Shown: positions 1 to 16,394 of the stretch, piece by piece | How the letters are laid out: each line of letters starts with the position of its first letter | Numbering within the stretch: the first letter of the stretch is position 1 | Assembly: GCA_964572155.1 (NCBI GenBank) | Contig: CAZNDZ010000001.1 | Span: 1,082,732 to 1,146,731 of the forward strand | From: an uncultured Planctomycetales bacterium | GTDB taxonomy: Bacteria > Omnitrophota > Gorgyraeia > Zapsychrales > Fredricksoniimonadaceae | Direction of reading: 5' to 3' | Length of the DNA stretch: 64,000 nt | The notes under the pieces: model-generated | Told to the model about the DNA's origin: nothing | What the model saw: the letters and a program-made list of their open reading frames with translations, nothing else | The model's database searches: none | Made by a program: the position numbers and the translations under genes

Positions 1-1090
1 TGACTTTTTCGACTTCAGCCGCAGGCATTTTGAATCGGCAGGATTTGCATTGATAGTAATAATATTTTGTCCCGTTATGACTTGTCCCGCAGGTTCCTTC
101 CATGGGTTTTTGGCATGCCTCACACATCAGCAATCCACCGTTTAAAAGATAGTTATGGGTATACGATGTGGTTCCATTATGTTTGGTGGCTTGGTTCTGG
201 GTTAGCAGATGCTGGACTTTGTAAAAGGTATCTTCATCTACCAGCGGTTCCCATACCGCAGGCACGACGTGATAACGCTGGTTCTCGGGAAGTTTTTCTT
301 GGGGGAGGCTTCGCCATCGTTTATTGATTTCCTTTTTGCCGACATAGGCTAGATTAATCAGCACATGGCGAATGGATGATCGTCCGAATTTCTTTGGTAC
401 TTGGATTTTATTGCGACGTGAAGTGTATCCTTTTGTCCGGTGGCCGCTGGCATTCAGCCGTCGGGCGGTTTCGATAAGTGATCCACATTCCAAATACTTC
501 TTAAAAGCAAATTGAACGGTGGATTGTTCTTGTTGATTGACGCCTAAATAACCTTTCTTGGCAGGGTCAAGGTCGTAACCTAATAAATGTCCGCCGTTCC
601 ATAGACCACGCTCAGCGCGGGCAAGAGTGGCATCGCGGTTACGTTCGGACGTTTGTGTGCGCTCAAATTCGGCCAAGGCCATCATGATGGTGATGAACAG
701 TTTGCCTTGAGAGGAGGTGGTGTCGTAATTTTGTTTCAGGCAGACGAATTCCACATTATGCTTGGTGAGGATTTCAAAAAAGTTGAGGAAGTCTTTAACC
801 GAACGGCTGATGCGGTCAAGCGCAGTGCAAATGACCGTGTTGACTTTGCCCGATTCCATGTCCGCGAACAATTGGGCAAATTCAGGGCTTCGAAAAGAAT
901 CTTTCCCGGAAACGCCTTTGAGGATATACCGTCCGGTTTCAACCCATTGCTCATCACAGGCCGTATTTTTATATTCAACGTGCGCCTGCAATCGCTGGAG
1001 CTGGTTTGTCAGCGACCCTTCAGGATTGCGCGCTTGTTTGTCTGTGCTGACCCTGATCACAAATCCACATCGTTTAGTTGTTCTTTCCAT
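1..1090 (-). CDS. Large serine recombinase (resolvase/invertase-type catalytic domain plus long C-terminal extension); C-terminus runs past window start
   Basis: Manual translation of the minus strand from ATG at 1090 gives MERTTKRCGFVIRVSTDKQARNPEGSLTNQ..., with the catalytic-serine motif RVSTDKQ. The frame stays open for >360 codons to position 1. It is absent from the ORF track only because no stop lies inside the window. Confidence 0.85.
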   Translation of the reverse strand, partial: MERTTKRCGFVIRVSTDKQARNPEGSLTNQLQRLQAHVEYKNTACDEQWVETGRYILKGVSGKDSFRSPEFAQLFADMESGKVNTVICTALDRISRSVKDFLNFFEILTKHNVEFVCLKQNYDTTSSQGKLFITIMMALAEFERTQTSERNRDATLARAERGLWNGGHLLGYDLDPAKKGYLGVNQQEQSTVQFAFKKYLECGSLIETARRLNASGHRTKGYTSRRNKIQVPKKFGRSSIRHVLINLAYVGKKEINKRWRSLPQEKLPENQRYHVVPAVWEPLVDEDTFYKVQHLLTQNQATKHNGTTSYTHNYLLNGGLLMCEACQKPMEGTCGTSHNGTKYYYYQCKSCRFKMPAAEVEKV

Positions 1091-1120
1091 AGCCCAACCC
1101 TATAACAACCCTTTCCCCAG

Positions 1121-1324
1121 TCAAGCTGAATCACCCTTATTCATGATTTCCCGTGCTTTATTTATGGCTTCAGTTATTTTTTCCTGACGTTTTGGATCAA
1201 AGCGCAATAAGCCTTCCTTTTTAAGCAAATCATAAACGCCCGAAGCAATGATTGTATTTATTTGCTTGTTATATTCATCCCAATCGGGAGGTTCTATATA
1301 TTCAACGTCAACCTTCAGTGCCAC
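1121..1324 (-). CDS. Small hypothetical protein (67 aa) immediately upstream of, and co-oriented with, the serine recombinase
   Basis: ORF in the track; 30 nt from the recombinase start; no recognisable motif. Possibly a recombination directionality factor or regulator, but this is unsupported. Confidence 0.35.
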   Translation of the reverse strand: MALKVDVEYIEPPDWDEYNKQINTIIASGVYDLLKKEGLLRFDPKRQEKITEAINKAREIMNKGDSA

Positions 1325-1375
1325 ATTTAACCCCTTTTAAAGAAAATTAGTTCCCTCATAGATGTACACGACATT

Positions 1376-1950
1376 TTTTTGAAAGTGTCGAAGCGTTTTA
1401 GGCTTACAGCGTCAATAAATTAAATTTTTGTTCGACGCTTTTAGAAATTCTACGTGTCCATAGGTGAAAGGGGGTTTCGACACTTTCCTAAAAACACTGT
1501 GTTCACCTATGGGGGATAGCCCCTTTACTAGTGCTTTACGGAATTTTTTGAAAAGTGTCGGGATTGTTTTTTAATAATTTATGCCGACACTTTGGCAAAT
1601 TTTCCGGAATACACCTATGAGGGCAAATGCCCCTCTACTAGTGATTACGTAATTTTTTGAAAAGTGTCGAACCGATTTTGGCTGATAGCGTCGAGAAAAT
1701 ATTTTTTTAATGCGACACTTTTGGGAATTTTCCGTAATCACATATGAGAGGGCTTACTCCCTTAGGCATACATACGACAAAAATTGGAAAAGTGCCGAGT
1801 TAAATCAAGCCGACACTTTAGGGGAAAACGTCGTACTCATGCATGAGAGTGATTTCAGAAGATGTGCGTTTTGGGAAGTTTTACGTAATCACCTATGGGG
1901 GCAGATTCGACACTTTTTGGAATTTCCTGTAATCACCTATGAGGGGCATT
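1376..1950. repeat. Iteron-type array: at least 6 imperfect direct repeats of a ~40-bp core (CGACACTTT..GGAATTTTCCGTAATCACCTATGAGGGGC) interleaved with inverted half-sites (GAAAAGTGTCG)
   Basis: Core copies read at ~1477, 1585, 1722, 1810, 1868 and 1906. Inverted half-sites sit at ~1376, 1545, 1651 and 1790. The array lies directly upstream of the primase/helicase gene. Confidence 0.6.
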
Positions 1951-1982
1951 AATTAAGAGGGTTGTTAAAAGGGAGAAGGGCG

Positions 1983-4262
1983 ATGTGGAAAAATTTAGCT
2001 GGGATTATTCCCGAAGAATTAAAGAAACAAAGGGCATGGGTTGGCTATGTGCTTAAACCTAAGGGGAATAAGATCGATAAAATCCCCATGAATGTGATGA
2101 CTGGCCAGCCTGCCAAGAGCAATGATCCGGAAACGTGGACGGATTTTGATTCTGCCGTGGCATTGGCTATTCAGCGCGGATATGCGGGCATAGGTTTTAT
2201 GTTCCAGCCGCCTTTTGTAGGCATAGATATAGACCATTGCGTGCAAGATGGCCGCTTATCTGACATGGCGGTCGATATTTTAAAGATCATGAATTGCTAC
2301 GCTGAATATTCCCCCAGCGGCACAGGTGTCCACTTGATCTTTAAAGGTGAAATCAAACGCGCAAGGCGCATTGCAGGCAAGGGACTAGAGATTTATTCAA
2401 AAGGAAGATTTTTTACTGTTACGGGAAATCGGCTAATGGATTATCCAGCTGTGGTTGAGGACAGGACATCGGATCTTAATCAGATATGGTCAAAATATTT
2501 TGAACCGCAAGAGGACATATTATCCAAGATTGCCAAGAGTAAAGATGCCGATAAATTTAACAAACTTTTTTCCGGTCAATGGCAGGGTGATTATCCATCA
2601 CAAAGCGAAGCTGATCTTGCATTGTGCAATAAATTGGCGTTTTGGACAGGCAAGGACGCAGGCAAAATGGATTCGCTATTTCGGCAATCCGGTTTGTTCA
2701 GGACCAAATGGGATGATAAGCATTTTGGCGATGGCAAGACCTATGGCCAAAGTGTTATTGAAAAGGCAGTTAGCAGTTGTTCGAGTTCTTATGAACATCC
2801 TTCCGAGCATTTCTGGCCGCGTCAGAGAGAAAAAATTCCTCAAGGCGAAATCATCACCCGCGACTGTGAAGAAAACATTAAACAATTCTTTCAAGATCAG
2901 CAGGGCAATTGTTTTATTGTTCTGCCCTTCGATAACCATCAAGAGGTGTGCCTAACCGACAGCAGTCGTTTTCGCAATTGGATGGCCAAGCGTTATCGCG
3001 ATGCGTATGGTGCACCACCCAATAATGAAGCATTAAAACAAGCCCGGGTTCAGGTGGAAGCGATTTGCGAGTCATCGCCCAAGGTGGAATTGTTTAACCG
3101 CGTTGGCTGGCATGACGAGGCCATTTATTACGATTTAACAACACCAGACTGGAAGGGAATTAAACTTACCAAAGATGGATGGGAGATTGTAGCGTTACCA
3201 TCCATATTCCGCAGGTATAACCATCAAAGCCAGCAAGTTATTCCAGTTAAAGGTGGCGACCCAAAAGAGATTTTGAAATTTTGCAATGTTGCAAAAGAAG
3301 ACCACTGTCTTTTTATGGTCACTATTGCTACGTTTTTTATTCCCAATATTCCTCATGTCATACCCACCCAAAGCGGTGAGCAGGGTACCGGCAAATCCAA
3401 CAATAGCCGCAAGATCAAAGGATTAAGTGACCCATCCAAGGTTATGCTTATTTCTGCTCCCAAGGATTTGGAGCAAGCGCAAATGATCGCGGACAAGCAT
3501 TGGATTAATAACTTTGACAATATTTCCCGCATCCCTGAATGGCTTAGCGACTTTTTATGTCGTGCAGTCACAGGCGAAGGCGACATGAAGCGCAGTTTAT
3601 ACACTAATGACGATGAGTACATTCGTTCTTACCGTAGATGTTTTGTGCTTAATGGAATTGGCGTATCGGCATGGCGACCTGATTTATTAGACCGCTCGAT
3701 TGTCTTTGATGTTCCTGTTCTTTCTAACCGCCGTCCAGAGCGATTAATTGAAAAGGAATGGAACGAAGCCTTACCGCGCATATTAGGCGGCTTCTTTACA
3801 GCTATTTCCAAAGCCATGAATAGCGTTGATGCCGTAACCGGCCATGAGAAATTTCGCATGGCCGACTTTGCCCAATGGGGCGCCTGTCTTGCTGATGAAT
3901 TAGGTTTCAGCCGAGAAGAGTTTTTCCGCAAGTATCAGGATTCCGTTAATCGTAAATGGCAGGACACCGCTGAGGACAGCTCATTTGCCGCGAAGATCAG
4001 AAACTTGGTTGATAGCAATGCCGGGTTTTGGCAAGGGTCGGTCAGTGACATATTGGAAAAAATAAAATCCCCTAATGGTTTTGATAAGAACATTCCACAA
4101 ACGCCCAAGGCACTCGCGTCTGAATTGATGCGTTTGGCACCTGTCATGCGCAATGTGGGTATTGACATTATCCGAAGTGATAAGCGCGAGGCAGGAACAG
4201 GCAGGAAGGTTTTTATATTCAGGAAGCGGCCAGATGAACTTTCTGAGCCAAGGCCATTTTGA
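1983..4262 (+). CDS. Replication protein: N-terminal primase-polymerase-like domain fused to a P-loop (D5/SF3-like) helicase domain (phage/plasmid primase P4-family-like)
   Basis: Walker A motif GEQGTGKS in the C-terminal half. The N-terminal region is rich in conserved acidic and His residues (GIDIDHC, SGTGVHL). An RBS (GGGAGAAGGG) precedes the ATG at 1983; the track ORF begins at TTG 1962. Confidence 0.75.
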   Translation: MWKNLAGIIPEELKKQRAWVGYVLKPKGNKIDKIPMNVMTGQPAKSNDPETWTDFDSAVALAIQRGYAGIGFMFQPPFVGIDIDHCVQDGRLSDMAVDILKIMNCYAEYSPSGTGVHLIFKGEIKRARRIAGKGLEIYSKGRFFTVTGNRLMDYPAVVEDRTSDLNQIWSKYFEPQEDILSKIAKSKDADKFNKLFSGQWQGDYPSQSEADLALCNKLAFWTGKDAGKMDSLFRQSGLFRTKWDDKHFGDGKTYGQSVIEKAVSSCSSSYEHPSEHFWPRQREKIPQGEIITRDCEENIKQFFQDQQGNCFIVLPFDNHQEVCLTDSSRFRNWMAKRYRDAYGAPPNNEALKQARVQVEAICESSPKVELFNRVGWHDEAIYYDLTTPDWKGIKLTKDGWEIVALPSIFRRYNHQSQQVIPVKGGDPKEILKFCNVAKEDHCLFMVTIATFFIPNIPHVIPTQSGEQGTGKSNNSRKIKGLSDPSKVMLISAPKDLEQAQMIADKHWINNFDNISRIPEWLSDFLCRAVTGEGDMKRSLYTNDDEYIRSYRRCFVLNGIGVSAWRPDLLDRSIVFDVPVLSNRRPERLIEKEWNEALPRILGGFFTAISKAMNSVDAVTGHEKFRMADFAQWGACLADELGFSREEFFRKYQDSVNRKWQDTAEDSSFAAKIRNLVDSNAGFWQGSVSDILEKIKSPNGFDKNIPQTPKALASELMRLAPVMRNVGIDIIRSDKREAGTGRKVFIFRKRPDELSEPRPF

Positions 4263-4448
4263 TGTTCACACAGTTACTGCCTTGGCAGTAAAGGGGTTGT
4301 GGAGTTTTGTGAATATCGTGAATCACACAATCTAATTAAGAAGATTTAATAAAAGAAAAGGAGGTAATAACACAAACAACAATCGTAGAAATCACAGGAA
4401 AAGAAGTTCACAACGCTCACTAACATCACAAAAACGGAGGGTAGGACA

Positions 4449-5111
4449 ATGAAACTCAATTTCTTAAAAGTTTTAAACAATCAGAACAACACGCCGGAAG
4501 AAATCGCCGAGCAGATCGTAGCGCTGGAGCAAAAGCAGGTCGAATACGAAAAGCAATTTTCCGCCTTACGCCTACAGGCTAAAGAATTTCGTCAAAAGAA
4601 ACTGTGCGGTGATGTTATATCTGACGCGCAGATCAATGAAGCAGATCGCAAGGTTGAGAATGCCAGCCTTGATTTAGAAGCGGTCAATGAAAGCATAACC
4701 AAGCTAATTGACAAATTACGTAAGTCGTATGAATCCATCGTCGCCAATGGCCATATCGTTGGAGGCCAGAAAATGAAAACAATAGAACCTGAGCGTGATC
4801 GTCTCATGGAAGAACTGGCGCACGCTAAAGCCAAGCTATTGGTTATCGCTGAGCAAATATGGGGAAATGGTGTAATCCGCAAGTTAAAAGATAGCAGCGT
4901 ATTTGATGATGACGCTAAAACTGATCCTATTATGAAAGAAGATGTGGAACGATTAAGGATGGCCGTTAAACAGCCGAGCTATTATGACAAGTATCAGCAA
5001 GCTCAAAGTTATTCCAGCTGGACGAATAATTTAAGGGTTGAGGATGAGATTGCCCGGGTTCTTGAACAACAGCGGATTAAATTAAACGTACCAGTTAAGG
5101 AATCGGTTTAA
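4449..5111 (+). CDS. Hypothetical coiled-coil protein (220 aa)
   Basis: GGAGGG RBS 7 nt upstream. Heptad-rich, charged sequence with no catalytic motif. Confidence 0.5.
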   Translation: MKLNFLKVLNNQNNTPEEIAEQIVALEQKQVEYEKQFSALRLQAKEFRQKKLCGDVISDAQINEADRKVENASLDLEAVNESITKLIDKLRKSYESIVANGHIVGGQKMKTIEPERDRLMEELAHAKAKLLVIAEQIWGNGVIRKLKDSSVFDDDAKTDPIMKEDVERLRMAVKQPSYYDKYQQAQSYSSWTNNLRVEDEIARVLEQQRIKLNVPVKESV

Positions 5112-5402
5112 GTAAAAATATGCGGAGGGGCTTAAGAAGGTTTCCATAGGCCTGATTAAGTCTTGCTATGAACATGGTGCATAGCAAAAGGGCGGGCGCT
5201 TCCCCCAAAACAATCCTTCCTCCGCACACCTTTTTTGGGTCCTTCCGGGTGGGGTACCGTATGCGGGTCGGGCGATGCTCGGACTGTCAGTGATACAAAA
5301 ATTAAAAAATGTCGTGTCGTGGTCGTATGGGGTGGTTTTGGGTGGTGCTTATGTGTATTCCTCGTCAACAATTTAATTTTATGATGCGACATAGGGTCGG
5401 AC

Positions 5403-5446
5403 AAACCGGACATTGTCAATGTCCGAATGTCCTATTGTGTCCGGTT
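5403..5446. promoter_or_regulatory. Nested inverted repeat (AAACCGGACA...TGTCCGGTTT enclosing the 17-bp palindrome GGACATTGTCAATGTCC); candidate operator upstream of the HTH gene and hsdR
   Basis: Perfect palindrome read directly at 5408-5424 with 10-bp outer arms. It lies ~80 bp upstream of the 5525 ORF. Confidence 0.35.
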
Positions 5447-5524
5447 TAAGGAATTGGTTGTTTGTGAAATTATATGTGATAGAATACGGTTTAAAATGTA
5501 ACAGGCAAATGAGGAGATTTATTA

Positions 5525-5710
5525 ATGCAAGGGCTTGTTAAAGCATTTACATCAGAAGAGATAGCAGAGTATCTACGATTGCATCCGTACACCATTCGAC
5601 GCTTGGCAAGGGAAGGAAAAATCCCCGCCTTCCGTGCTGGCGGCCAATGGCGGTTTAGGAAGGATGATATTGATAAGTGGTCGAAGGCGTATCCGTTTGT
5701 AAAAAAATAA
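5525..5710 (+). CDS. Excisionase/AlpA-family helix-turn-helix DNA-binding protein (61 aa)
   Basis: The sequence ...EIAEYLRLHPYTIRRLAREGKIPAFRAGGQWRFRKDDIDKW is typical of MerR-like excisionase-family HTH_17 proteins. The gene ends 28 bp before hsdR. Confidence 0.7.
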   Translation: MQGLVKAFTSEEIAEYLRLHPYTIRRLAREGKIPAFRAGGQWRFRKDDIDKWSKAYPFVKK

Positions 5711-5738
5711 ATTATAAAGAGAAAAGGGCATACCCCCA

Positions 5739-8495
5739 ATGCCAGAAAAACTAAACGAAGCAAAAACACGTGTCAAAATCATTGATCCCCTTTTAACAGC
5801 TGCTGGATGGGATTTAAACGATCTCACCAAAGTCCGCAGGGAAGTGCCCGTGGATGGATATGACAAAGAACCGTGGAATGGTGTGACGGATTATTGCCTT
5901 TATGACTCCCGCAATAATGTTTTGGCTGTTGTCGAAGCCAAGAAAATGAGCCGAAGCCCACGGGAAGCAGACGAGCAGTTGCGGTATTACTTAAATTACA
6001 TTAGCAAAAATCAGGAATTTACACCGTTTGGATTTATGTCTAATGGGCTCAATACTTATTTCTGGGAAATAGGTTTAGCGCATCCGCGTTTGATTGCAGG
6101 ATTCTTTAGTCCAGAAGATTTGTCGCGTTTGTTATTCCTTCGCCAAAACCAAAAAGAACTTAGTGATTCATCTATTAATCGATCAATTGCCAGTCGACCT
6201 TATCAACAAGAAGCAGTCCGTCGGGTTTGTGAAGCGTTTTCACAAGGCAAAAGACGTGCGCTGATCGTGATGGCAACAGGAACAGGGAAGACTCGCACCA
6301 CAATGGCGCTTATTGAAATATTTCTAAAAACAAATCAGGCTAGGAATGTTCTGTTCTTGGCTGATCGTGATGCGTTGGTTGAGCAGGCGTTATCGGATGG
6401 ATTTAAATCCCATTTACCAAATGAACCACGGGACAGGATTTATACGCGCAATATCGACACGACAAAACGTTTATTTGTGGCAACAGAACAAACAATGAAT
6501 GTGTGTTATACAAAATTTAGTCTTGGATTTTTTGATTTGATTATTTTTGATGAGGCGCATCGTTCCATATTTCACAGGTTTTCAGAAGTCATGGATTATT
6601 TTGACGCGCGTATGGTTGGTCTTACGGCAACACCTGCTACTTTTATTGATAGAGACACATTCGGTGTTTTTGGTTGTCAAAATAGCACACCGACATTCCT
6701 TTACGACTATAAGACCGCAGTAAAGGAAGAATATCTGGTTGATTTTAGTTTATACCAAGCCCAGACAGGATTTCAGCGCAAAGGGATTAAGGGTGTTGAA
6801 TTAAGTGAAGAGGACAAGAACGCTTTAATTACTCAAGGTATTGATCCTGATGAGATTGATTATTCAGGAACAGATATTGAAGTGGCTGTCAGCAACAAAG
6901 ACACCATACGCAAACAATGCGAAGAAATTTGGGATGCGTGTTTAAAAGATCAATCAGGTCAGCTTCCAGGTAAAACAATCATCTTTGCCATGACCAAGGA
7001 ACACGCAGAGCGTATCCGCGAAGTCTTTGAAGAAATGTATCCGCAACAACTGGATTTAGTGCAGGTTATTACGTCCAGCACAGAGCGTGTGCGCGACGGC
7101 AGTTACGGTGATGGTTTAATTACAAAATTCAAAAAGAATAATTTGCCAAGGATTGCTATCTCTGTTGATATGCTCGACACCGGAATCGACGTGCCGGAGG
7201 TGGTTAATCTGGTTTTTATGAAGCCCGTTCAGTCACAAATCAAAATGTGGCAAATGATCGGACGCGGCACCAGAAGCAATGCCACATGCATGTATTTTGA
7301 TAGATTGCCAGACGGTAAGAAAACAGAATTTAAAATCATTGATTTCTGGCAAAACGATTTTCAAAAAGACCCCAAGGGTGGGGCATCTCCCGTTATTCCT
7401 ATTTTGGTGTCCATTTTTAACACGAGATTAAAGAGTTTTGAAGCTCTCGATAAATCAAGGCAGGCCGAAGATTATGCGCAGGTGGTTGCAGATTTACGCG
7501 CTATGGTTGAACGTATTCCTGTCGATTGTTTCTCAGTTAGAAGAGTGTGGGTAGAAATTGAACATGTTTGGGGTGATGAGTTTTGGACGTTATTGACTAA
7601 GGATAAAATTGAATTTTTACGCCTTAGGATTGGGCCCTTGTTGCGATTTGTGGGAGAGGTTGATGTTGCCGCTGAAACATTTACCAGTAAACTTGAGAGA
7701 TTGCGTTATCAAGTATTCACTGGCAAGGTAATGCCTGATTTATTGCGTTCCATTGCCGAAGATGTCAGCCTGTTGCCCGAATATATTTTGAAAGATGAAA
7801 AGTATGCTAAATCAGCAGAGTTGTGTTTGTCTGATAAATTGGCAAGTGCATCACCTAAAGAATTGCGTCAGGTCATTATAGATTTGGCGGGTGTGATGCG
7901 AAACCGTAGGAATCGGCAGAATACCTTTATTTCAATTGATCTGCCAGATTTCATTGATACGCGCGGCCTTATTTCAATTGGCGAGGGTGGTGAGCAGATT
8001 TACGTTGAAGAGTATAGGAAACGGGTTGAAGCAAAGGTGCTGTCTATCATAGAAAATCATCCGGCCATTGAAGCGATCCGTCAGGGCAGGGATGTTAGTG
8101 AAGAAGATTTAATTTCTCTAGAACGGGCTTTGCATGATGGGCTAACAGGGGGAGATATACAGCTAAGTACGCTGAATATCAAGCGGGCGTATGGTCTAAA
8201 GGTCAGTAGTTTCCTTGGGTTTATTCGTCATATTTTATCGCTGGATACCATTCCCGAATATGCGTCTGTCGTTGGACGTTGCTTTGAGAATTTTATTACA
8301 GCGCATCATTACAATGCGGATCAGATTTTATTTTTGCGCGCTGTCCAGAATGTGTTCTTACAAAAGCGAAAACTTAGTGAAGCGGATCTATACGAACCGC
8401 CATTAACCAATTTTGGCAGGAACGCGGTTGATAAATTATTTTCACCAGATGATGTGCGTGATCTTCTGCAATTTGCCCAAAGGATAGAGGTCTAA
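5739..8495 (+). CDS. hsdR: Type I restriction enzyme R subunit
   Basis: N-terminal HsdR_N-like segment (TRVKIIDPLLTAAGWD). DEAD-box helicase Walker A (MATGTGKTRT), DEAH-like box (FDEAH) and the helicase C-terminal domain are present. Confidence 0.85.
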   Translation: MPEKLNEAKTRVKIIDPLLTAAGWDLNDLTKVRREVPVDGYDKEPWNGVTDYCLYDSRNNVLAVVEAKKMSRSPREADEQLRYYLNYISKNQEFTPFGFMSNGLNTYFWEIGLAHPRLIAGFFSPEDLSRLLFLRQNQKELSDSSINRSIASRPYQQEAVRRVCEAFSQGKRRALIVMATGTGKTRTTMALIEIFLKTNQARNVLFLADRDALVEQALSDGFKSHLPNEPRDRIYTRNIDTTKRLFVATEQTMNVCYTKFSLGFFDLIIFDEAHRSIFHRFSEVMDYFDARMVGLTATPATFIDRDTFGVFGCQNSTPTFLYDYKTAVKEEYLVDFSLYQAQTGFQRKGIKGVELSEEDKNALITQGIDPDEIDYSGTDIEVAVSNKDTIRKQCEEIWDACLKDQSGQLPGKTIIFAMTKEHAERIREVFEEMYPQQLDLVQVITSSTERVRDGSYGDGLITKFKKNNLPRIAISVDMLDTGIDVPEVVNLVFMKPVQSQIKMWQMIGRGTRSNATCMYFDRLPDGKKTEFKIIDFWQNDFQKDPKGGASPVIPILVSIFNTRLKSFEALDKSRQAEDYAQVVADLRAMVERIPVDCFSVRRVWVEIEHVWGDEFWTLLTKDKIEFLRLRIGPLLRFVGEVDVAAETFTSKLERLRYQVFTGKVMPDLLRSIAEDVSLLPEYILKDEKYAKSAELCLSDKLASASPKELRQVIIDLAGVMRNRRNRQNTFISIDLPDFIDTRGLISIGEGGEQIYVEEYRKRVEAKVLSIIENHPAIEAIRQGRDVSEEDLISLERALHDGLTGGDIQLSTLNIKRAYGLKVSSFLGFIRHILSLDTIPEYASVVGRCFENFITAHHYNADQILFLRAVQNVFLQKRKLSEADLYEPPLTNFGRNAVDKLFSPDDVRDLLQFAQRIEV

Positions 8496-8498
8496 AAA

Positions 8499-10205
8499 AT
8501 GCTTACAGATTCAAATTTAAAATCAAAAGTTGATTCACTGTGGAATAAGTTATGGTCAGGAGGATTGGCTAATCCTTTAGATGCGATTGAACAGCTTTCA
8601 TTTTTATTGTTTTTAAAGCGTCTGGAAGAAGCCGAAGAGGATCGCGAGCGAGTCGCTAAGTTGCGTAAATTGAAATATGAACCAATATTTAAAGATAAGG
8701 AATTGCGTTGGTCATATTGGTCAAATTTAGATGCGGCGAGCGCTCTTAAAGCAGTAAAGGAAAAAGTATTTCCTTTTATTAAAGAATTAGGTGGTGTCGG
8801 CGGCTCGTTTGCAGAGCAAATGGAAAATGCTGAATTTAAGATTAATAAACCAAATTTATTAATTGAAGCATGTCGTCTGATCGATGAAATGCAAATTTCA
8901 AGCCAGAATCAGGATGTTCAGGGTGATCTTTATGAATACCTTTTAAGTAAGCTAAATATCGCTGGTACCAACGGCCAGTTTAGAACGCCACGTCATATCA
9001 TTCGCATGATGGTGCAGATGATTGACCCGCGTCCCGGTGAAAAGATGTGTGACCCGGCGGCCGGTACGTGCGGATTTCCGGTTAATTTCTATCAGTACAT
9101 TTTAGAAAAGAATACCGATCCAAAATTGCTCACCTATGATGAAGATGGGTTTCCCCACAAATTGGTTGGCGATAAATTAACCAAGGAACAAAATGAATTC
9201 TTACAAAACGAGGCAGTCACTGCGTATGACAACGACGCAGGAATGACCATGCTTCGCATTGGATCAATGAATTTGATCTTGCATGGTATAGCACAACCCA
9301 ATTTTAAGCATACTGATGCACTTTCCAAAGCATATAACGAAGAACGAAAATACGACATTATCTTAGCCAATCCACCTTTTAAGGGGGCAATTGACGCATC
9401 TGACGTTAATCCTACATTACCGACAAAATGTAAGAAGACGGAACTCTTATTTCTACATCTGTTTTTAAGGCTTTTAGAAAACGGTGGACGCGCGGCTGTC
9501 ATTGTGCCAGATGGTGTTTTATTCGGTTCCAATCAGGCGCATTTAGAGATTAGAAAGAAGCTAATTGAGGAAAATCGACTGGATGGTGTTGTGTCCATGC
9601 CAGCGGGTGTGTTTAGGCCTTATGCAGGAGTATCAACAGCCGTATTGTTTTTCACCAAGGGCGCATCAACCGAGAAAGTCTGGTTTTACGATATGGAACA
9701 TGATGGCTTCTCGCTGGATGATAAACGTCAAAAGGTTGAGGAGACTGATATTCCTGATTTGCTTGAGTGCTGGAGGAATCGGTCTGATAAAAAGTTTTCA
9801 CAAACCAGAGATAAGCGTTTGGCAGAGCTTCAAGAGAAGATTACGCCACTAAAGAAAAAACGGTTGGCGCTTTTGGCGGAGGTTAATTGGTTAACATTTG
9901 AACAGGTAATCGCTGAAGATGGTAATGATAAGGCGCGATTAGCATTAGAAGCAGATAAATCAAAGCTGGACGATTTGCATAAAGAAATTGAACCCCTTCA
10001 GAATGAAATCAATCAGCTTACCCGCCAATTTTGGGTGGCCAAGGACAAGCTGAAGGCCAATAAATATGATTTATCCTCTAGCCGATACCGTTTGATTGAG
10101 CAGGATGAGATTTATTATGAGAAACCTGCAATGACTTTACAAAGATTAGATGAAATTAATAAAGTTTCGGATAGTCTTATTGTTAATCTTAAGAAAGAGA
10201 TTTAG
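8499..10205 (+). CDS. hsdM: Type I restriction-modification N6-adenine DNA methyltransferase subunit
   Basis: Contains the motif ILANPPF (NPPF catalytic motif) and the AdoMet-binding segment DPAAGTCGF. It starts 4 nt after the hsdR stop. Confidence 0.9.
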   Translation: MLTDSNLKSKVDSLWNKLWSGGLANPLDAIEQLSFLLFLKRLEEAEEDRERVAKLRKLKYEPIFKDKELRWSYWSNLDAASALKAVKEKVFPFIKELGGVGGSFAEQMENAEFKINKPNLLIEACRLIDEMQISSQNQDVQGDLYEYLLSKLNIAGTNGQFRTPRHIIRMMVQMIDPRPGEKMCDPAAGTCGFPVNFYQYILEKNTDPKLLTYDEDGFPHKLVGDKLTKEQNEFLQNEAVTAYDNDAGMTMLRIGSMNLILHGIAQPNFKHTDALSKAYNEERKYDIILANPPFKGAIDASDVNPTLPTKCKKTELLFLHLFLRLLENGGRAAVIVPDGVLFGSNQAHLEIRKKLIEENRLDGVVSMPAGVFRPYAGVSTAVLFFTKGASTEKVWFYDMEHDGFSLDDKRQKVEETDIPDLLECWRNRSDKKFSQTRDKRLAELQEKITPLKKKRLALLAEVNWLTFEQVIAEDGNDKARLALEADKSKLDDLHKEIEPLQNEINQLTRQFWVAKDKLKANKYDLSSSRYRLIEQDEIYYEKPAMTLQRLDEINKVSDSLIVNLKKEI

Positions 10206-10209
10206 AAAA

Positions 10210-11319
10210 ATGTCATCTGTGCGTTTTGATGAAGTTGCAGAATTTATTAATGGCAAGGCTTTTAAGCCTTCAGATTGGTCAGAGTCTGGATTGCCAATTA
10301 TTCGTATTCAAAATTTAACAGGTACCAGTGAAAGATTTAATTATTTTAATGGTGATGTAGAAGATAAATTTCGCGTTAGGAATGGGGATATTCTAATATC
10401 TTGGTCTGCATCGTTAGGTGTTTACTATTGGCAGGGAGCAGAAGCTGTATTAAATCAACATATTTTTAAAGTTTGCCCGAAAAAGAACATAGATCCAGAT
10501 TACTTTTATTACGCATCGACAGGTAAACTTCAAGAAATGGTTGCCCAAGTTCATGGGGCAACGATGCAACATATAACCAAAGATCGTTTCGATGCGCTTT
10601 TAATTGCCTTGCCCTCTTTAACTGAACAAAGAAGAATAGCAAAATATTTAAAACAAGCCGACCGCCTTCGCCGTATCCGCCGTTTTGCGCTTGAAATGAG
10701 CGATTCATTTCTTCCAGCTGTTTTTGTTGAGATGTTTGGTGATCCTGTGAGAAATGCCCAGGCATGGCCAACAGAATCCTTAGGCGTGCTTGGAAAAGTG
10801 ACAACAGGTGGGACTCCTCCAAGCGCGAAATCAGGAATGTTTGGCGGGAAGACTCCTTTTATTACGCCTGGTGACCTAGAAGTTGATACGAAATATTCGC
10901 AAAGGTTTTTGACTGATGATGGTGTTAATGAAAGTGTTATCGTTAGATCAGGTTCAACATTGGTATGTTGCATTGGGGCAACAATTGGAAAGACGGATAA
11001 AGCGCGTGTTAAATGCTCTTTCAATCAGCAGATCAATGCCATTGAATGGGGAAAAAATATTAATGATGATTTTGGTTTTTATCTTATGCGATTTTTTTCA
11101 AAGATTGTAGCTGAACGTGGTCAATCGACCACATTGCCTATTTTGAAGAAGTCAGCGTTTGAAGAGTTGATTTTGCCAGTTCCACCGTTACCTATTCAAG
11201 AAAAGTTTGCTGATATTGTCGAACGACATGAACAATTACGTTCTACGCAGGTCGAATCCTTACGCCAAGCCGAGCATTTGTTCCAATCCTTGCTTCATCA
11301 GGCGTTTAGTGGGAAATAA
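10210..11319 (+). CDS. hsdS: Type I restriction-modification specificity subunit (two target-recognition domains)
   Basis: ATG at 10210 directly follows the hsdM stop. Shows bipartite target-recognition-domain (TRD) architecture and the conserved central and C-terminal coiled regions typical of HsdS (LPSLTEQRRIAKYL..., LPVPPLPIQEKFADIVE). Confidence 0.8.
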   Translation: MSSVRFDEVAEFINGKAFKPSDWSESGLPIIRIQNLTGTSERFNYFNGDVEDKFRVRNGDILISWSASLGVYYWQGAEAVLNQHIFKVCPKKNIDPDYFYYASTGKLQEMVAQVHGATMQHITKDRFDALLIALPSLTEQRRIAKYLKQADRLRRIRRFALEMSDSFLPAVFVEMFGDPVRNAQAWPTESLGVLGKVTTGGTPPSAKSGMFGGKTPFITPGDLEVDTKYSQRFLTDDGVNESVIVRSGSTLVCCIGATIGKTDKARVKCSFNQQINAIEWGKNINDDFGFYLMRFFSKIVAERGQSTTLPILKKSAFEELILPVPPLPIQEKFADIVERHEQLRSTQVESLRQAEHLFQSLLHQAFSGK

Positions 11320-11333
11320 GAGAGGTATTCATT

Positions 11334-12458
11334 ATGGATAAATGGTTAGGAATAATAACTGGTACTAATCGAGGTATTGTGTCTTTTGAATGGCAACAGG
11401 ATGCACAGAACAAGATTTCTGGCACCTTCAATGTTTATGACGTGGATAATACCAATATTTCTGGAAAAGTAGAAGGTGTCGTTAATGGTGAAAAGATCGG
11501 TTTAAAATTATTAAATATTCAGCCACAAGGAGAAGGGATTTCAAAGTCAGGAACAGCCGACTTAGTTATGAACGGTAAAGAGCTTAAAGGAGTATGGGCT
11601 ACAGATTTAGGCGCAAAAGGTGAATGTGTTCTTTATCAATTAATTCAATCACAGCAAAGTGCTGTATCAGACTTGCCGGATCCAGATTTAACTCTGGAAA
11701 CCAAAGACATAACGATTGCTTTTTGTACTTTCAATAAGAAAAGCATTGAGGATATTTTTAAGATAATGACAGGTATCGTTAATGCAATAAGGAAAGATAA
11801 AAAGGCGCAGGTATTGCCTCCAATTTATTCGATTACTTATGATGCGGAAGAGAGAATTAGAACGTATTCTTTGTCAGAATTTTTACAAAAATTGAATGAT
11901 GCCAAGAAAATCTGGTATGTGGGTTTTGAATTTAAAGATAAGGCCGATCTAAAAAATATTTTTATCAATATTTTTTATCAAGAAAATATTGGTTCAAATA
12001 TAAGAAGCAACGTTTTAGTTGAAAGTACAGATAAAGAAATTGTAATGGTGATCCCAGAAATGGTGAGAGGACTGGTCAGCAAGGTAAGGAATAGAAATTT
12101 ATTTTTTTACCATTGGTTATTTGAGGCGGTCATTCAATTGGCCGCTGTCATAGGAATGTTTCTTTTGTCGTATTTAGTTAGCAATAAGCTGACAATATCA
12201 TTGCCTAACTATAATTTTGCTTTGGATAAGCCCTATATCTTCGTGATTGTGCTTATTATATTTTCCAATCTCTGGACATATGTCTCGAGAATGATTTTAG
12301 GGTTGATTCATAGAAATTTTCCTGTCGTTGACATAAGAAATCGGGAGCGGGTAGGATACCTTCGAGAGGTGATCGTGACTCTTCTCGGGGCATTTATTTT
12401 GTGGGCATTTACAAATTTCGGATCGTTGATTTATAAATGGCTTCTTATAAAGAATTAA
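11334..12458 (+). CDS. Uncharacterised protein: ~260-aa soluble N-terminal region plus three predicted C-terminal transmembrane helices
   Basis: Hydrophobic stretches LFFYHWLFEAVIQLAAVIGMFLLSYLV, IFVIVLIIFSNLWTYVSRMILGLI and VTLLGAFILWAFTNFGSLIY. No recognisable family. It sits 15 nt after hsdS. Confidence 0.6.
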   Translation: MDKWLGIITGTNRGIVSFEWQQDAQNKISGTFNVYDVDNTNISGKVEGVVNGEKIGLKLLNIQPQGEGISKSGTADLVMNGKELKGVWATDLGAKGECVLYQLIQSQQSAVSDLPDPDLTLETKDITIAFCTFNKKSIEDIFKIMTGIVNAIRKDKKAQVLPPIYSITYDAEERIRTYSLSEFLQKLNDAKKIWYVGFEFKDKADLKNIFINIFYQENIGSNIRSNVLVESTDKEIVMVIPEMVRGLVSKVRNRNLFFYHWLFEAVIQLAAVIGMFLLSYLVSNKLTISLPNYNFALDKPYIFVIVLIIFSNLWTYVSRMILGLIHRNFPVVDIRNRERVGYLREVIVTLLGAFILWAFTNFGSLIYKWLLIKN

Positions 12459-12485
12459 GCATCAAAATCCAATAGGTGAATAGTA

Positions 12486-13781
12486 ATGGCAGTACTTAAT
12501 CAAGAGAGCATCAAGGAAATTTATTCTGAGATACGGCTTATGGGCATCCGTTATGCGGGAATGCTTAATAATGTTCATCAGTTATCTGCCACTTTAAAAG
12601 AAGAGAAGGCCAAGGAATATCTTTCTTATGGGGTTGGTAGGAGGATAACGGTTCTAAACCGTTGCATAGAAAACGTATTTACTCTTTTTCCGCTAAATCA
12701 AGAAGCCCCGTTAGAGGCAGATAAAGTAAAAGACGTCGATATTAATCTACATGCTTTTTGTGTAAATATTTTCGGCCTTTTGGATAATTTAGCTTGGGTT
12801 TGGGTATATGAAAAGAAATTGTCGCCAAAGATAAATGAGCATAATGTTGGATTATTTAAAGAAAAAGTGAAGAGATCCTTACCCAAAGCATTTCAAGAGT
12901 ATTTAGATTCAGACTTAATTCAAAAATGGCACCATAAATACCAAAAAGATTATCGAAACGCTGTATCGCACAAGATTCCATTATATGTGCCACCTAAGAC
13001 GCTAAATTCTGAACAGGCCGGACAATATCAAGAAATAGAGAATAAAATTAACGATTGTTATAAGGCTTTTATACATGGGAATTCTGGGGATCAAATCAGT
13101 AAAATAGAAAAGTTGCGAACAGAACAAGAAGCCGTTGGTAGTGCTTGTCCGCTTTTTGTCCATTCATTTACCGAGGCAGATGGCCAGTTATTCATACATC
13201 CTCAAATGATCGCTGATTTTAAGACCATTGAAGAAATTGTCGGAAAATTTTGTCAAGCAATTCATTCTGGGGAAGTTAAGCAAGAGGAAGCCCAAACAGA
13301 TGAAGAAAAGTTTAAATTCTTAGCTGAGCATTTCTTTTACGAAATCCAGCAACTTCTTGTTGCTGTGTACGTCGTTAAGCATCCATTGCCATTCTGGATC
13401 AATATAAAATTAGAGGTCTTTCTTTTACATGCGCGATCTTTGTATGAATTCTTTTATTCAAAAGAAAAGCGTAATGACGATGATGCCCGTGCGTATGATT
13501 TTGTCGGTGATGTCAATAATTGGCTGAAGGAGAGGCCATTAAAATCCAGTGATATTGAACAATCCATTAAGCGTATGAATAAAGAGCTTTCGCATATAAC
13601 TTATAAAAGGCATTCTGGGGTTGTTCTTGAGAAACAATGGGATTTGACGCCTATTAAGGATCACTTGTTGGCCGTGACAAAAGTTTTCTTAGAGAATGTT
13701 CCCAATGGATCAAAGATTATGGATGATATTAATAAATTTGAGGTGATATTAGTTAACAATGGTCTTCCGCCGAATGCATGA
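12486..13781 (+). CDS. Uncharacterised protein (431 aa) carrying two Rx4-6H (HEPN-like) motifs; putative RNase-type defence effector
   Basis: RNAVSH at residues 157-162 and RMNKELSH at 363-370. Otherwise no recognisable family. The assignment is motif-only. Confidence 0.5.
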   Translation: MAVLNQESIKEIYSEIRLMGIRYAGMLNNVHQLSATLKEEKAKEYLSYGVGRRITVLNRCIENVFTLFPLNQEAPLEADKVKDVDINLHAFCVNIFGLLDNLAWVWVYEKKLSPKINEHNVGLFKEKVKRSLPKAFQEYLDSDLIQKWHHKYQKDYRNAVSHKIPLYVPPKTLNSEQAGQYQEIENKINDCYKAFIHGNSGDQISKIEKLRTEQEAVGSACPLFVHSFTEADGQLFIHPQMIADFKTIEEIVGKFCQAIHSGEVKQEEAQTDEEKFKFLAEHFFYEIQQLLVAVYVVKHPLPFWINIKLEVFLLHARSLYEFFYSKEKRNDDDARAYDFVGDVNNWLKERPLKSSDIEQSIKRMNKELSHITYKRHSGVVLEKQWDLTPIKDHLLAVTKVFLENVPNGSKIMDDINKFEVILVNNGLPPNA

Positions 13782-14362
13782 AGGTATTCATATTCATTGC
13801 TATGCTGACACTTCGTTTAACAAATAAAACTTTGAAAGAGCTGCCTTTCCCCAAGTCTGCCATTTTGACCTTGCCCGAGCATGGGGGCGTGCTGGAAGAC
13901 TGGTATGTGCATGTGTTTGTCCATGAAAAGCGGCGGCATTTGATGTTTACGCACGCGGGGTCGTTGGTGTCGTTTGTGGCATCTGGGGTTTATCAGCGTG
14001 ATATGAAGGATATAGAAAAGATTTTCAGGCGTGAGTTTAGTCGGTTTTTGGCATTAGAGAAATTTGACCAGCAAGATATTCTGATGTTCCAATTAGCCTT
14101 GGGTGATATGCGCTTGGCCAAGACCATTGACCGCAGGGTAACGGGATCAATGGTTGAGCTAATCAAAAGTTATAAATGGTATGTGAGCGACACGTATAAT
14201 CATAAGGGACATGTGCCGGAGGATTATGCGCTCTACGAATTAAATCGAATTCCGCTGGGTGCGTTAAAATATGCGTTCGCCATTGAAATGTTCCATAAAA
14301 CCGTGGACGTGCTCAAAGGTTTTCACCATATCCCCGGGCATGGGGCAGTGGGATTGAATTAG
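13778..14362 (+). CDS. Uncharacterised protein (194 aa), translationally coupled to the upstream gene (ATGA overlap), with distinctly higher GC than its neighbours
   Basis: Start overlaps the preceding stop. His-rich (HVFVHEKRRH, HKGH, FHHIPGHG). GC looks ~45% against ~33% for the two upstream genes. Confidence 0.5.
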   Translation: MKVFIFIAMLTLRLTNKTLKELPFPKSAILTLPEHGGVLEDWYVHVFVHEKRRHLMFTHAGSLVSFVASGVYQRDMKDIEKIFRREFSRFLALEKFDQQDILMFQLALGDMRLAKTIDRRVTGSMVELIKSYKWYVSDTYNHKGHVPEDYALYELNRIPLGALKYAFAIEMFHKTVDVLKGFHHIPGHGAVGLN

Positions 14363-14414
14363 GAAGAACAGGTCAGGACGCATCATAGAATTATCAAAAT
14401 TGGGAGTTGACTAA

Positions 14415-15437
14415 ATGGGGAAAAAATTGCAAACGGTTCATAAAGATAACAAAGTTATTCTTTATACTACGGCGGATGGCAAGGTTACCGTTGATGTGTT
14501 TTTTTCGCGGGACAATTTCTGGTTGACCCAAAAAACCTTGGCAGATTTATTCGGGGTTAATGTTCCAGCAGTATCTCGGCATTTAAAGAATATTTATGCC
14601 AGCAAAGAACTTGTGAGGGAGGCAACTGTTTCCAAAATGGAAACTGTTCAAACTGAGGGTGGCCGTAAGATTTCTAGGTATGTTGAGTATTATAATTTGG
14701 ACGCTGTAATTGCCGTAGGGTATCGGGTCAACTCTGTTAAAGCCACGCATTTTCGGATCTGGGCCACAAATACCCTTAGGGAGTTCATGGTTAAGGGTTT
14801 TGTCCTTAATGATGAAATGCTTAAAAATGGGCGGGCTTTTGGTGAAGATTATTTTGATGAACTTTTGGAAAAAATTCGGGAGATTCGCGCAAGCGAGCGT
14901 AGGGCATATCAGAAGATCGCTGATGTGTTTGAGCAATGTAGCAGTGATTACCAAAGTAATAGCCAGGAAACACAGCTGTTTTATCAGATTGTCCAGAATC
15001 ATCTGCACTTTGCGACAGTTGGGAAGACTGCGGCAGAGATTGTTTATCAACGAGCGGACAGTAAAAAACCATTTATGGGTTTGACGACATGGAAGAATTC
15101 TCCAAAAGGGAAGGTTTTAAAGAGTGATGTTACAGTGGCAAAGAATTATTTAAATCAGGAAGAAGTATCCAAGTTGAATCGTCTGGTGACCATGTTTATA
15201 GATTTTGCTGAACTTCGGGCGTTAAATCGGCGCATTATGACAATGAAGGATTGGCTTAAACAAATTGATAAGTTTCTTCAATTGACCGATCAACAGGTGC
15301 TTAGTAATGCGGGGAAGATTTCACATGAAATGGCGACTGCCAAAGCCCATCAAGAATACGATAAATTTCGGGTTAAGCAAGATAGTGAGTACGTGTCAAA
15401 TTTTGATCAGGAATTCGCTAAGTATCTGAAGGGCTAA
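14415..15437 (+). CDS. rhuM: RhuM-family protein (Fic/DOC-related virulence protein RhuM family)
   Basis: Strong resemblance to RhuM proteins along the whole length (ILYTTADGKVTVDV, AVGYRVNS, RIWATNTLREFMVKGFVLNDE, DYFDELLEKIREIRASERR, MGLTTWKN, VTVAKNYL, NRLVTMF). Confidence 0.85.
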   Translation: MGKKLQTVHKDNKVILYTTADGKVTVDVFFSRDNFWLTQKTLADLFGVNVPAVSRHLKNIYASKELVREATVSKMETVQTEGGRKISRYVEYYNLDAVIAVGYRVNSVKATHFRIWATNTLREFMVKGFVLNDEMLKNGRAFGEDYFDELLEKIREIRASERRAYQKIADVFEQCSSDYQSNSQETQLFYQIVQNHLHFATVGKTAAEIVYQRADSKKPFMGLTTWKNSPKGKVLKSDVTVAKNYLNQEEVSKLNRLVTMFIDFAELRALNRRIMTMKDWLKQIDKFLQLTDQQVLSNAGKISHEMATAKAHQEYDKFRVKQDSEYVSNFDQEFAKYLKG

Positions 15438-15536
15438 CGCCCACAATGTGAATATGGTTCCACCGATTGCGCTCGGTGATAAACTTATTCCGGCACCACA
15501 GCAGTCCCAAATCGGACTTCAGTCCGGGGAGCCATT

Positions 15537-15578
15537 TTTAGTCGTGGACGCAAAACGCAATAGCGTTCATAATAAAGG
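15537..15578. repeat. ~42-bp repeat copy 1 (TAGTCGTGGACGCAAAACGCAATAGCGTTCATAATAAAG)
   Basis: ~38/42 identity with the copy at 16328-16369, in the same orientation. Together they bracket the grx/hxlR pair. Confidence 0.6.
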
Positions 15579-15608
15579 CCTCTCTAGATATGTATCCAGA
15601 GAGGCCTT
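15574..15608. terminator. Bidirectional rho-independent terminator-like hairpin (AAAGGCCTCTCT-loop-AGAGAGGCCTTT) between the convergent rhuM and grx-like genes
   Basis: A perfect 12-bp stem read directly. It has an A-run on the 5' side and a T-rich 3' side. Confidence 0.55.
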
Positions 15609-15665
15609 TCGTTCTTATTAAGACAAGTCTATTCTTCTTGAACTTAAAAGAAATATTTATTTTGC

Positions 15666-16369: not shown

Positions 16370-16394
16370 CCTGTATGCAAGTAATTAACCATTT

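Follow-up and report, generated by a model that had tools for sequence, protein, structure and literature searches.

A tRNA-Asn-Associated Integrative Defence Island with a Serine Recombinase and a Putative Iteron Origin in an Omnitrophota Genome

Introduction

At the left end of a 64,000-nucleotide stretch of an Omnitrophota genome (deposited as an uncultured Planctomycetales bacterium; GenBank assembly GCA_964572155.1, contig CAZNDZ010000001.1, positions 1,082,732 to 1,146,731), called the window in what follows, a large serine recombinase (LSR) gene lies near a field of repeats, a primase-helicase gene (rep) and a type I restriction-modification (R-M) system. What kind of element do these genes form, where does it begin and end, and is it equipped to move and to replicate? 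An earlier note on this DNA had taken the arrangement as the integration and autonomous replication core of an island, satellite or integrative plasmid, and had proposed that at least ~15 kb were horizontally acquired. The analysis described here supports the core of that proposal. We are confident that the left 15.5 kb of the window represents most of a ~16-kb integrative, probably self-replicating, tRNA-targeting defence island. Omnitrophota are an uncultured phylum with very small cells whose mobile elements are essentially unstudied, and no publication was returned by a literature search that combined Omnitrophota with serine recombinase. Coordinates refer to the window unless a contig is named; contigs used for comparison are designated by L numbers.

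Results

The minus-strand gene cut by the left edge of the window (1-1090) codes for the first 363 amino acids of a protein with a Resolvase catalytic domain (Pfam PF00239, E 6.8e-31) followed by a Recombinase domain (PF07508, E 2.3e-16). The catalytic region includes the motif RVSTDKQ, as befits a resolvase-type domain with a serine nucleophile, and matches the TP901-1 integrase in the PDB (3bvp, E 1.5e-16). PHROGs assigned the protein to the integrase family phrog_95 (E 4.6e-90). An exact look-up of the Rep protein led to contigs, assembled from several sequencing runs, whose sequence matches the window at 100% identity. The element is contained in the runs SRR10036058, SRR10036059, SRR10036065, ERR15459718, DRR623196 and DRR623197. 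One of these contigs, L001 (100% identity across 14,262 bp), holds the complete recombinase gene (1405-3057 of L001), which continues for ~562 bp beyond window position 1. The full-length protein has 550 amino acids, well over 400, and contains paired cysteine motifs (CEAC ... CKSC) and a long heptad-like stretch. The domain PF13408 (Zn_ribbon_recom) was recorded in close relatives (L178 and L180), not in the window protein itself. The best NCBIfam models were CcrB and XisF, both under their cut-offs (NF047343 CcrB, 133 bits, cut-off 900; CcrC scored 77, cut-off 900, and CcrA 54, cut-off 700). By its domain content the protein is classified as a large serine recombinase, or serine integrase. 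Upstream and in the same orientation lies a 67-amino acid open reading frame (ORF), orf67 (1121-1324, minus strand), for which no family match was found in Pfam, PHROGs or NCBIfam. It is kept beside the LSR in L063 (70% identity), L022 (46%) and 12 metagenome loci (48-64%), and we infer that it is a candidate regulator or directionality factor. The recombinase leaving the window at its left edge and the small co-oriented gene before it were thus both correctly recognized in the earlier note.

That note had also recommended extending the sequence leftwards to locate the recombinase C-terminus and the attachment sites, and the identical public contigs made this possible. L001 reaches 1,967 bp to the left of the window and contains the end of dnaX, recR, a tRNA-Asn(GTT) gene (1371-1446 of L001) and, on the opposite strand, the LSR gene, which abuts and overlaps the 3′ half of the tRNA gene. 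The left attachment core (attL) lies outside the window, at about -529 to -520. The matching attR core, GGGGAGCCAT, is found in the same orientation at 15526-15535 (plus strand) and consists of the last 9 nucleotides of the tRNA-Asn gene plus a T. This 10-mer occurs once in the window, where 0.12 occurrences are expected, and it is the junction 10-mer in ~20 related loci, including those with non-tRNA left flanks. It was placed at this point on the grounds of its surroundings: it is found 88 bp past the last cargo gene (a RhuM-family gene), inside a 230-bp gap before the first host-like gene, a trailer and terminator of the native type follow it, and the genes beyond are ordinary-looking (glutaredoxin, HxlR, HSP20, CBS, YbaK and beta-CASP nuclease genes). 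The segment that follows the core (15536-15620, plus strand; AAAGGCCTCTCT...AGAGAGGCCTTT and then a T-rich tail) reads as the host-derived arm (B′), that is, the displaced trailer and terminator hairpin of tRNA-Asn. Its start, TTTTTAG, resembles the TTTAG that follows the tRNA gene in L009, L021, L033 and L025, and its hairpin followed by a T-run is also present at the unoccupied tRNA-Asn sites of L007, L009, L021 and L051. With these boundaries the element most probably measures 16,055 bp, composed of window positions 1-15535 and ~520 bp further left. The ~15 kb of acquired DNA proposed earlier can thus be restated as an element with an integration and a replication module.

Islands moved by tyrosine integrases leave a repeat of the tRNA 3′ half. 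A partial tRNA copy at the right end was looked for in the 64 kb with a 25-mer search allowing up to 3 mismatches and none was found, which pointed to a short core of the serine-integrase type. The 10-bp core is present at both ends, with no longer repeat found, and a relative described below has a clean 9-bp core. The element-side arm after the tRNA gene folds into two hairpins, the second of them terminator-like, and so the element appears to replace the terminator that it displaced. From these junctions the predicted attB is GAGCCCTCGCG-GGGGAGCCAT-TTTTAGTCGTGGAC (junction k-mer GAGCCCTCGCGGGGGAGCCATTTTTAGTCGTGGAC) and the predicted attP is GGACTTCAGTCC-GGGGAGCCAT-ATTGACGTCTGAC (junction k-mer CGGACTTCAGTCCGGGGAGCCATATTGACGTCTGAC).

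The locus was then compared with others in the phylum. RecR-anchored loci from 47 genomes assigned the host to Candidatus Omnitrophota. In these loci the recR and tRNA-Asn pair is conserved and the downstream flank is species-specific; often the pair is followed by a minus-strand LSR gene (L022, L024, L025, L020 and L012). A core with the order LSR (minus strand), sometimes orf67, repeats, Rep (plus strand) and a homologue of the 220-amino acid protein encoded after Rep (orf220) recurs in dozens of Omnitrophota contigs, including L022, L024 and L177. In these contigs it is combined with different defence cargo (type I R-M with Abi_2 and patatin; type III R-M with GmrSD; AbiE; Fic; DpnI) and sometimes located at other sites. 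A scan of JGI metagenomes with the junction pattern added ~20 loci whose LSRs are 74-79% identical to that of the window and which have in common the core and, on the element side, a conserved arm, ATTGACGTCTGACAGCG...ATCAAATAGCCCT. Their left flank is an intact tRNA-Asn gene in 9 loci and the 3′ half of tRNA-Asn with unrelated upstream sequence, later recognized as intron-containing genes, in 4; these 9 and 4 loci all have the arm ATTGACGTCTGACAGCG and the order LSR, orf67, iterons, Rep, orf220 beside the tRNA gene. L065, L078, L091 and L093, and also L063, have a non-tRNA left flank. That the core recurs with differing cargo further supports its reading as an integration and replication core.

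Two contigs, L056 and L057, provide the best evidence for mobility. They are 99.3% identical and have in common the genes of the host flank (a BrkB-family gene and tRNA-Glu) as well as the Rep element. In L057 a second LSR element of 6.4 kb (1292-7702) is located exactly between the 3′ end of tRNA-Glu and the resident Rep element and bounded at both ends by the 9-bp core ACGCCACTT. This additional element encodes a 505-amino acid recombinase, a MerR-like protein, a TIR protein and an SDH-type protease, and has no Rep. The pair is a clean presence/absence polymorphism. It indicates that elements of this kind insert at the terminal nucleotides of a tRNA gene through a short core and that they accrete in tandem, which provides a ready explanation for the non-tRNA left flanks. 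The junctions with such flanks (L063, L065, L078, L091 and L093) were also considered as circular attP forms, and this was rejected since L078 and L093 do not overlap circle-wise; by analogy with L057 they may rather represent tandem arrays. The comparison of occupied and empty sites that the earlier note called for was informative with respect to the recurrence of the module and to the polymorphism of a relative at tRNA-Glu, but it did not yield an empty site or a circle of the window element.

The rep gene (1983-4262, plus strand) is on the strand opposite to the LSR, as the earlier note had stated, and codes for 759 amino acids with an archaeo-eukaryotic primase (AEP) primase-polymerase, a helix-bundle domain (HBD) and a superfamily 3 (SF3) helicase. 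Residues ~1-210 align with the NrS-1 phage enzyme (E ~2e-35), with the DxD and SxH motifs (GIDIDH and SGTGVH) lining up with those of NrS-1, and residues ~210-280 correspond to the NrS-1 HBD (PF22763, 102.3 bits, cut-off 27.9). Judged by its catalytic motifs and its HBD, Rep has an NrS-1-like AEP primase-polymerase. The remaining 475 residues (~285-759; window 2835-4259) contain a Walker A motif, and no sequence match to them was found in Pfam, NCBIfam, PADLOC or the PDB; by sequence this half is not a member of Pfam D5_N, Pox_D5 or DUF5906, and a PDB profile search of Rep returns the primase half only. Across 20 homologues there is no variation in the Walker A residues (G-Q-G-K) or in the Walker B aspartate. 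An AlphaFold model based on 20 homologues (pLDDT 88, pTM 0.84) had the Rep of SaPI5 (PDB 7OLA) as the best structural match of its helicase, at ~9-12% identity. With its P-loop, Walker A and B residues and SF3/D5 fold, the C-terminal part of the modelled protein is a D5/SaPI-type SF3 helicase, visible as such by fold only. The primase-helicase of the earlier note was accordingly confirmed, its helicase half by fold only.

More than 2,600 homologues of Rep are detectable, mostly in Omnitrophota. Elsewhere the helicase module is fused to a PF09250 primase-polymerase or to a zf-CHC2 primase, at least three primase types being counted, and the NrS-1-type primase is fused to D5_N/Pox_D5 helicases. 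This swapping of modules is consistent with the two halves of Rep doing the primase and the helicase jobs. In a library of 50%-identity representatives of 1.84 billion proteins the helicase module had 15,951 cluster representatives at E<=1e-3 and 7,679 at E<=1e-30. A single-protein search of IMG/VR found no close relative of Rep. A profile search of the same collection found one contig with 61% overall Rep identity, which carries the same island-type module, and distant relatives of the helicase domain (26-32% identity) were present in many IMG/VR contigs. Rep is, as always in this family, followed by orf220 (4449-5111, plus strand), a core gene for an all-helical protein of 220 amino acids with homologues after Rep in L056, L060, L063, L077, L078, L090, L091 and L097 (30-41% identity). 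The family comprises 72 unnamed proteins; the AlphaFold model shows long helices (pLDDT 89.6), and a fold search with it gave no structural match at E<1 and none that was informative.

The region between orf67 and rep (1346-1952, ~600 bp) is a field of iterons and the putative replication origin. The 9-mer CGACACTTT has 10 exact copies in the window, 8 of them between 1382 and 1916. Across the window 0.27 copies would be expected, and none of 100 shuffles reached 10 copies. Eleven oriented units of ~42 nucleotides align to the consensus YCGACACTTTT-N-CGTAATCACCTATGAGGGG, each made of a CGACACTTTT half and a GTAATCACCTATGAGGGG half. One minus-strand unit and a degenerate plus-strand unit on the left are followed by three head-to-head pairs in the middle (1474-1564, 1581-1673 and 1709-1801) and by three direct units on the right (1807-1952) that end 30 bp before the start of Rep. 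The iteron field of ~575 bp described before is thus real and slightly longer. In relatives the motif AAAGTGTCG is repeated 5-9 times upstream of Rep (L063, L056, L090, L091 and L071), often as three copies on one strand and then three on the other. Before the more divergent Reps of L077, L078 and L080, RAGACACC repeats take its place, while the LSRs of these contigs are still ~74-78% identical to that of the window. The repeats track Rep and not the LSR, which favours iterons of an origin over recombinase-related sites. Direct and inverted units that adjoin rep, in a position conserved in relatives, point to an iteron origin, and we predict that the field serves as the origin and is bound by Rep; it is likely, in addition, that these putative binding sites act as operators.

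Downstream of orf220 is a gene for a 61-amino acid helix-turn-helix (HTH) protein of the excisionase/MAD1 type (5525-5710, plus strand), a MAD1-like protein matched by TIGR01764 'excise' (57.6 bits, cut-off 28.8) and by Pfam HTH_17. It stops 29 nucleotides upstream of hsdR and may have a regulatory role for the R-M operon or a role in excision. Next comes the cargo, which starts with a complete type I R-M system (5739-11319, plus strand) made up of hsdR (5739-8495; Pfam ResIII/EcoEI_R_C), hsdM (8499-10205; N6_Mtase/HsdM_N) and hsdS (10210-11319; Methylase_S), recognized in PADLOC as REase_I, MTase_I and Specificity_I. Between it and the RhuM gene is a three-gene cassette (11334-14362, plus strand), a candidate defence system because of its position. 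Its first two proteins (374 and 431 amino acids) matched nothing in Pfam, NCBIfam or PADLOC, and the third (194 amino acids) is a DUF6933 protein (E 1.6e-26) related to the PADLOC candidate family PDC-S63 (E 8e-7). The last cargo gene (14415-15437, plus strand) encodes the RhuM-family protein (Pfam Virulence_RhuM, E 1e-108), which belongs to the candidate defence family PDC-S05 of PADLOC (E 4e-147). From these assignments the cargo is classified as anti-phage: type I R-M, RhuM/PDC-S05, DUF6933/PDC-S63 and two unannotated genes.

Discussion

These observations can be arranged in a model of how the element may work. The LSR would have recombined attP with the extreme 3′ end of tRNA-Asn(GTT), downstream of recR, with a crossover probably located within the shared core GGGGAGCCAT that leaves the tRNA intact. 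The native tRNA trailer and terminator would have been displaced to the right end (15536-15620), and the element would supply a replacement hairpin and terminator after the tRNA, the other strand of which would encode the C-terminal tail of the LSR. After excision, Rep would bind the 11 iterons upstream of its own gene, melt the DNA and load itself as a hexameric SF3 helicase in the manner of SaPI Rep and poxvirus D5; its AEP domain would prime and a host polymerase would copy the circle. The cargo would protect the host, and hence the element, from phages.

Several observations weigh against this interpretation and bear on the right boundary and on mobility in particular. The attR core rests on an identity of 10 bp that recurs somewhere in 64 kb in 11% of shuffles, and the case for it consequently depends on position and flank. 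The contigs of the relatives end before a second core would be reached; the G+C content does not separate the island from its flank; and the synteny of the right flank is not conserved in other species, with the exception of an RRM gene 4.6 kb away (20178-20408; 84% identical in L051). An older or larger island is therefore conceivable, and the 10-mer at 15526 could be there by chance in an island that extends to ~20 kb, up to the RRM gene, or that is shorter: the 15.5-20.2 kb region is not syntenic with other Omnitrophota, and L051 holds different genes from tRNA-Asn to the conserved RRM gene. However, the match is correctly oriented and within 90 bp of the last defence gene, the TTTTTAG trailer and terminator come directly after it as in native tRNA-Asn loci, the same 10-mer is the junction in all related loci, those with non-tRNA flanks included, and a core just as short is found in the tRNA-Glu relatives at the corresponding position of their tRNA. 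A boundary elsewhere is, in our opinion, very improbable. Neither an attB allele nor a circular attP junction was detected in look-ups of glutaredoxin, RhuM and CBS or in the JGI scan; HSP20, also used for an exact look-up, had no entry on record. Every contig retrieved by the exact-protein look-ups was occupied, the scan, whose degenerate pattern could match attB, attP, attL or attR, returned attL-type junctions of relatives only, and there was no empty site matching the right flank of the window among the 47 RecR-anchored loci. The element could for that reason be an immobilized, domesticated remnant, acquired once and fixed, with LSR and Rep fallen into disuse. Occupancy in every recovered contig of the species, the 100% identity across several sequencing runs and the decayed recombinase or RhuM remnants at the same tRNA in L020, L072 and L027 would all agree with such a history. 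Yet the LSR (550 amino acids), Rep (759 amino acids), orf67 and orf220 are full-length with intact catalytic and Walker motifs, the iterons are well preserved (8 exact 9-mers) and both att cores are intact. We consider a remnant unlikely, and a mobile island that may still be active is preferred.

The scans of the island proteins with Pfam, PHROGs, NCBIfam and PADLOC detected no packaging, capsid, portal, terminase, relaxase, secretion, transfer or FtsK-like gene, and a recombination directionality factor was not identified either. This also counts against the interpretation given above. The relaxase, coupling protein, type IV secretion system or FtsK-like translocase that would characterize an integrative and conjugative or mobilizable element was not found in these scans. 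The earlier note had considered phage-inducible islands and satellites, and of this option the size and the replication module fit, while the packaging, capsid, relaxase and transfer genes are those that the scans did not reveal. An element of the phage-inducible chromosomal island (PICI) type, excised when induced by a helper phage, amplified by Rep and packaged in helper capsids, would be expected to look like this one in several respects. A 16-kb size with integrase, primase-helicase, iterons and defence cargo resembles PICIs and PICI-like tycheposons (10.1101/2020.12.28.424599), the SaPI5 Rep is the structure that the helicase matches best, and many IMG/VR contigs encode distant relatives of the helicase domain. 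Moreover, three proteins (220, 374 and 431 amino acids) were unannotated after all scans, so the absence of these genes is no proof. On the other hand, Pfam and PHROGs revealed no terS, capsid, portal, cpm/ppi-like or other structural or packaging gene, no repressor/antirepressor module was recognized, and the close relatives of Rep in IMG/VR amount to the single island-type contig. The probability of a phage satellite is accordingly regarded as low. We give similarly little weight to the possibility that the repeats are an operator array for divergent LSR and rep promoters instead of an origin. They do fill the whole divergent intergenic region between orf67/LSR and rep, and autoregulation is common among iteron-binding Reps, which makes the two roles compatible. 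No sigma-70-like promoter was found in the iteron field, by a scan that may not suit this phylum; like the negative scans above, this is a point against our interpretation. Nonetheless, 11 copies within 600 bp, among them head-to-head pairs and a direct array right next to rep, form the typical layout of an iteron origin for self-loading helicases, and the motif co-varies with Rep and not with the LSR, as seen in L077, L078 and L080, where a divergent Rep goes with different repeats.

Comparison with known systems places the island among relatives of a general kind. The combination of integrase, pri-rep and ori in ~10-20 kb that defines PICIs is present in its 16,055 bp, whereas the hijacking genes (terS, capsid or capsid-remodelling genes) and the helper-sensing repressor were not detected in the island scans; the SaPI5 helicase (7OLA) is only ~9-12% identical to that of Rep. 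It further differs from SaPI/PICI elements in its Omnitrophota host and in having its iterons upstream of rep in a divergent region. SCCmec, a staphylococcal cassette chromosome (SCC) element with Ccr large serine recombinases and the Cch helicase and primase (PMC7581432), is similar in possessing an LSR, replication genes and cargo. SCC elements are also located at the 3′ end of a housekeeping gene, but this gene is rlmH (orfX) and not tRNA-Asn, and the window LSR is not a Ccr, its CcrB score being 133 bits against an equivalog cut-off of 900. In the window Rep the primase and the helicase are fused and the primase is of the AEP type, whereas the SCC primase is A-family-polymerase-like; the obvious iteron field is another difference from SCC in our comparison.

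Tycheposons (Hackl et al., 10.1101/2020.12.28.424599) are 10-20-kb islands beside tRNA genes. They have a site-specific recombinase and cargo that varies, often contain primase/helicase genes and accrete in tandem; 27 of the 937 described carry a large serine recombinase. The window element shares with them the full-length tRNA neighbour, the site-specific recombinase and the replication genes, and tandem accretion is seen in L057. However, most tycheposons have a particular clade of tyrosine recombinases and partial tRNA copies, whereas the window element has a serine-type enzyme, a ~10-bp core and no partial tRNA, and it also differs in its defence cargo and host phylum. According to Kazlauskas et al. 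(2018; PMC5862659), bacterial AEP primase-helicase fusions nearly always belong to integrated elements that have att repeats of tyrosine or serine recombinases at their ends and are located most often in tRNA genes, and one cryptic class is devoid of phage and conjugation genes. This description of cryptic integrated mobile elements fits the window element, although that survey (PMC5862659) was centred on the PrimPol-PV1 supergroup and the window Rep combines an NrS-1-like primase with a helicase module for which Pfam has no model. NrS-1 itself is a phage replicase, while the window Rep is encoded in a non-phage island beside iterons, and the helicase halves of the two proteins have no detectable sequence similarity. 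We place the island in the general kind of tRNA-targeting cryptic integrative defence islands and not among the PICIs, the SCC elements or the tycheposons proper.

As such it is a fairly ordinary kind of element, yet a well supported one. It extends known principles to a new host group and leaves the understanding of such elements unchanged. The analysis describes a recurrent family of mobile elements in Omnitrophota, brings to light a large D5-like helicase module without a Pfam model, and yields an LSR with a predicted specificity for the 3′ end of a tRNA gene together with its predicted attB and attP sequences. The module formed by LSR, 67-amino acid protein, iterons, primase-helicase and 220-amino acid protein should be a useful marker to find defence islands and new defence cargo in these genomes, of which the three-gene cassette at 11334-14362 is an example.

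The way in which the LSR gene crosses the attachment site deserves separate consideration. The ORF reaches the crossover core without a stop codon of its own. Its 13 terminal codons lie antisense to the 3′ half of tRNA-Asn, and it ends with a TAA complementary to the TTA of the anticodon loop. The overlap covers 1405-1446 in L001 (~-562 to -521 of the window), and LSR tails antisense to the 3′ half of tRNA-Asn are also found in L022 (5197-5238), L025 (3201-3239) and L020 (10698-10736). In L056 the ORF passes through the whole tRNA-Glu gene (7607-7711) to give 572 amino acids, while the same gene stops at the junction in L057 (1248-1288) after 543. In L078 (reverse complement, 1078-3126) and L093 (11025-13064) the LSR reads on for ~140 amino acids that include a ParB-like HTH, for a total of ~680; in L091 this domain is a separate ORF of 115 amino acids (3672-4019). 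The tail thus seems to be written by the DNA across the junction, and its form would differ between integrated, excised and tandem states. This is reminiscent of fuselloviruses, in which SSV-type integrase genes are split by integration. We are aware of no earlier description of a junction-dependent tail among serine integrases. Should the tail influence activity, the form of the enzyme would differ between the three states, and a role as sensor of the integration state or in the control of directionality, suggested by these reading frames, is a speculative idea that we consider unlikely.

Additional Observations

An 80-amino acid ORF (1710-1952) called as a gene in one public contig lies wholly inside the iterons. 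It is probably spurious and has no relation to the DUF5659 gene that relatives have in this place. To the right of attR, positions 15536-20177 are lineage-specific and could be older material accreted beside the tRNA gene; an 81-amino acid ORF in this region (18347-18592) resembles, judged only by eye, a piece of a hemolysin-III-type membrane protein. In L027, RhuM fragments (11724-12184; 74-88% identical) are found ~4 kb downstream of tRNA-Asn, where there is no LSR, which suggests a decayed relative of the island.

The junctions with the 3′ half of tRNA-Asn were examined as possible attP forms carrying half a tRNA, and this was rejected because Rfam shows a group I intron in the anticodon loop. 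Such an intron (RF00028, 68-96 bits) interrupts the tRNA-Asn(GTT) anticodon loop in several Omnitrophota, and intron-split genes are located in L024 (10640-11260), L067 (1748-1990), L070 (6890-7111), L072 (1302-1524) and L074 (5820-6049). The insert in L024 also holds an HNH-type ORF (10703-11131). Integrative elements are still found at the 3′ end of these intron-split tRNA-Asn genes.

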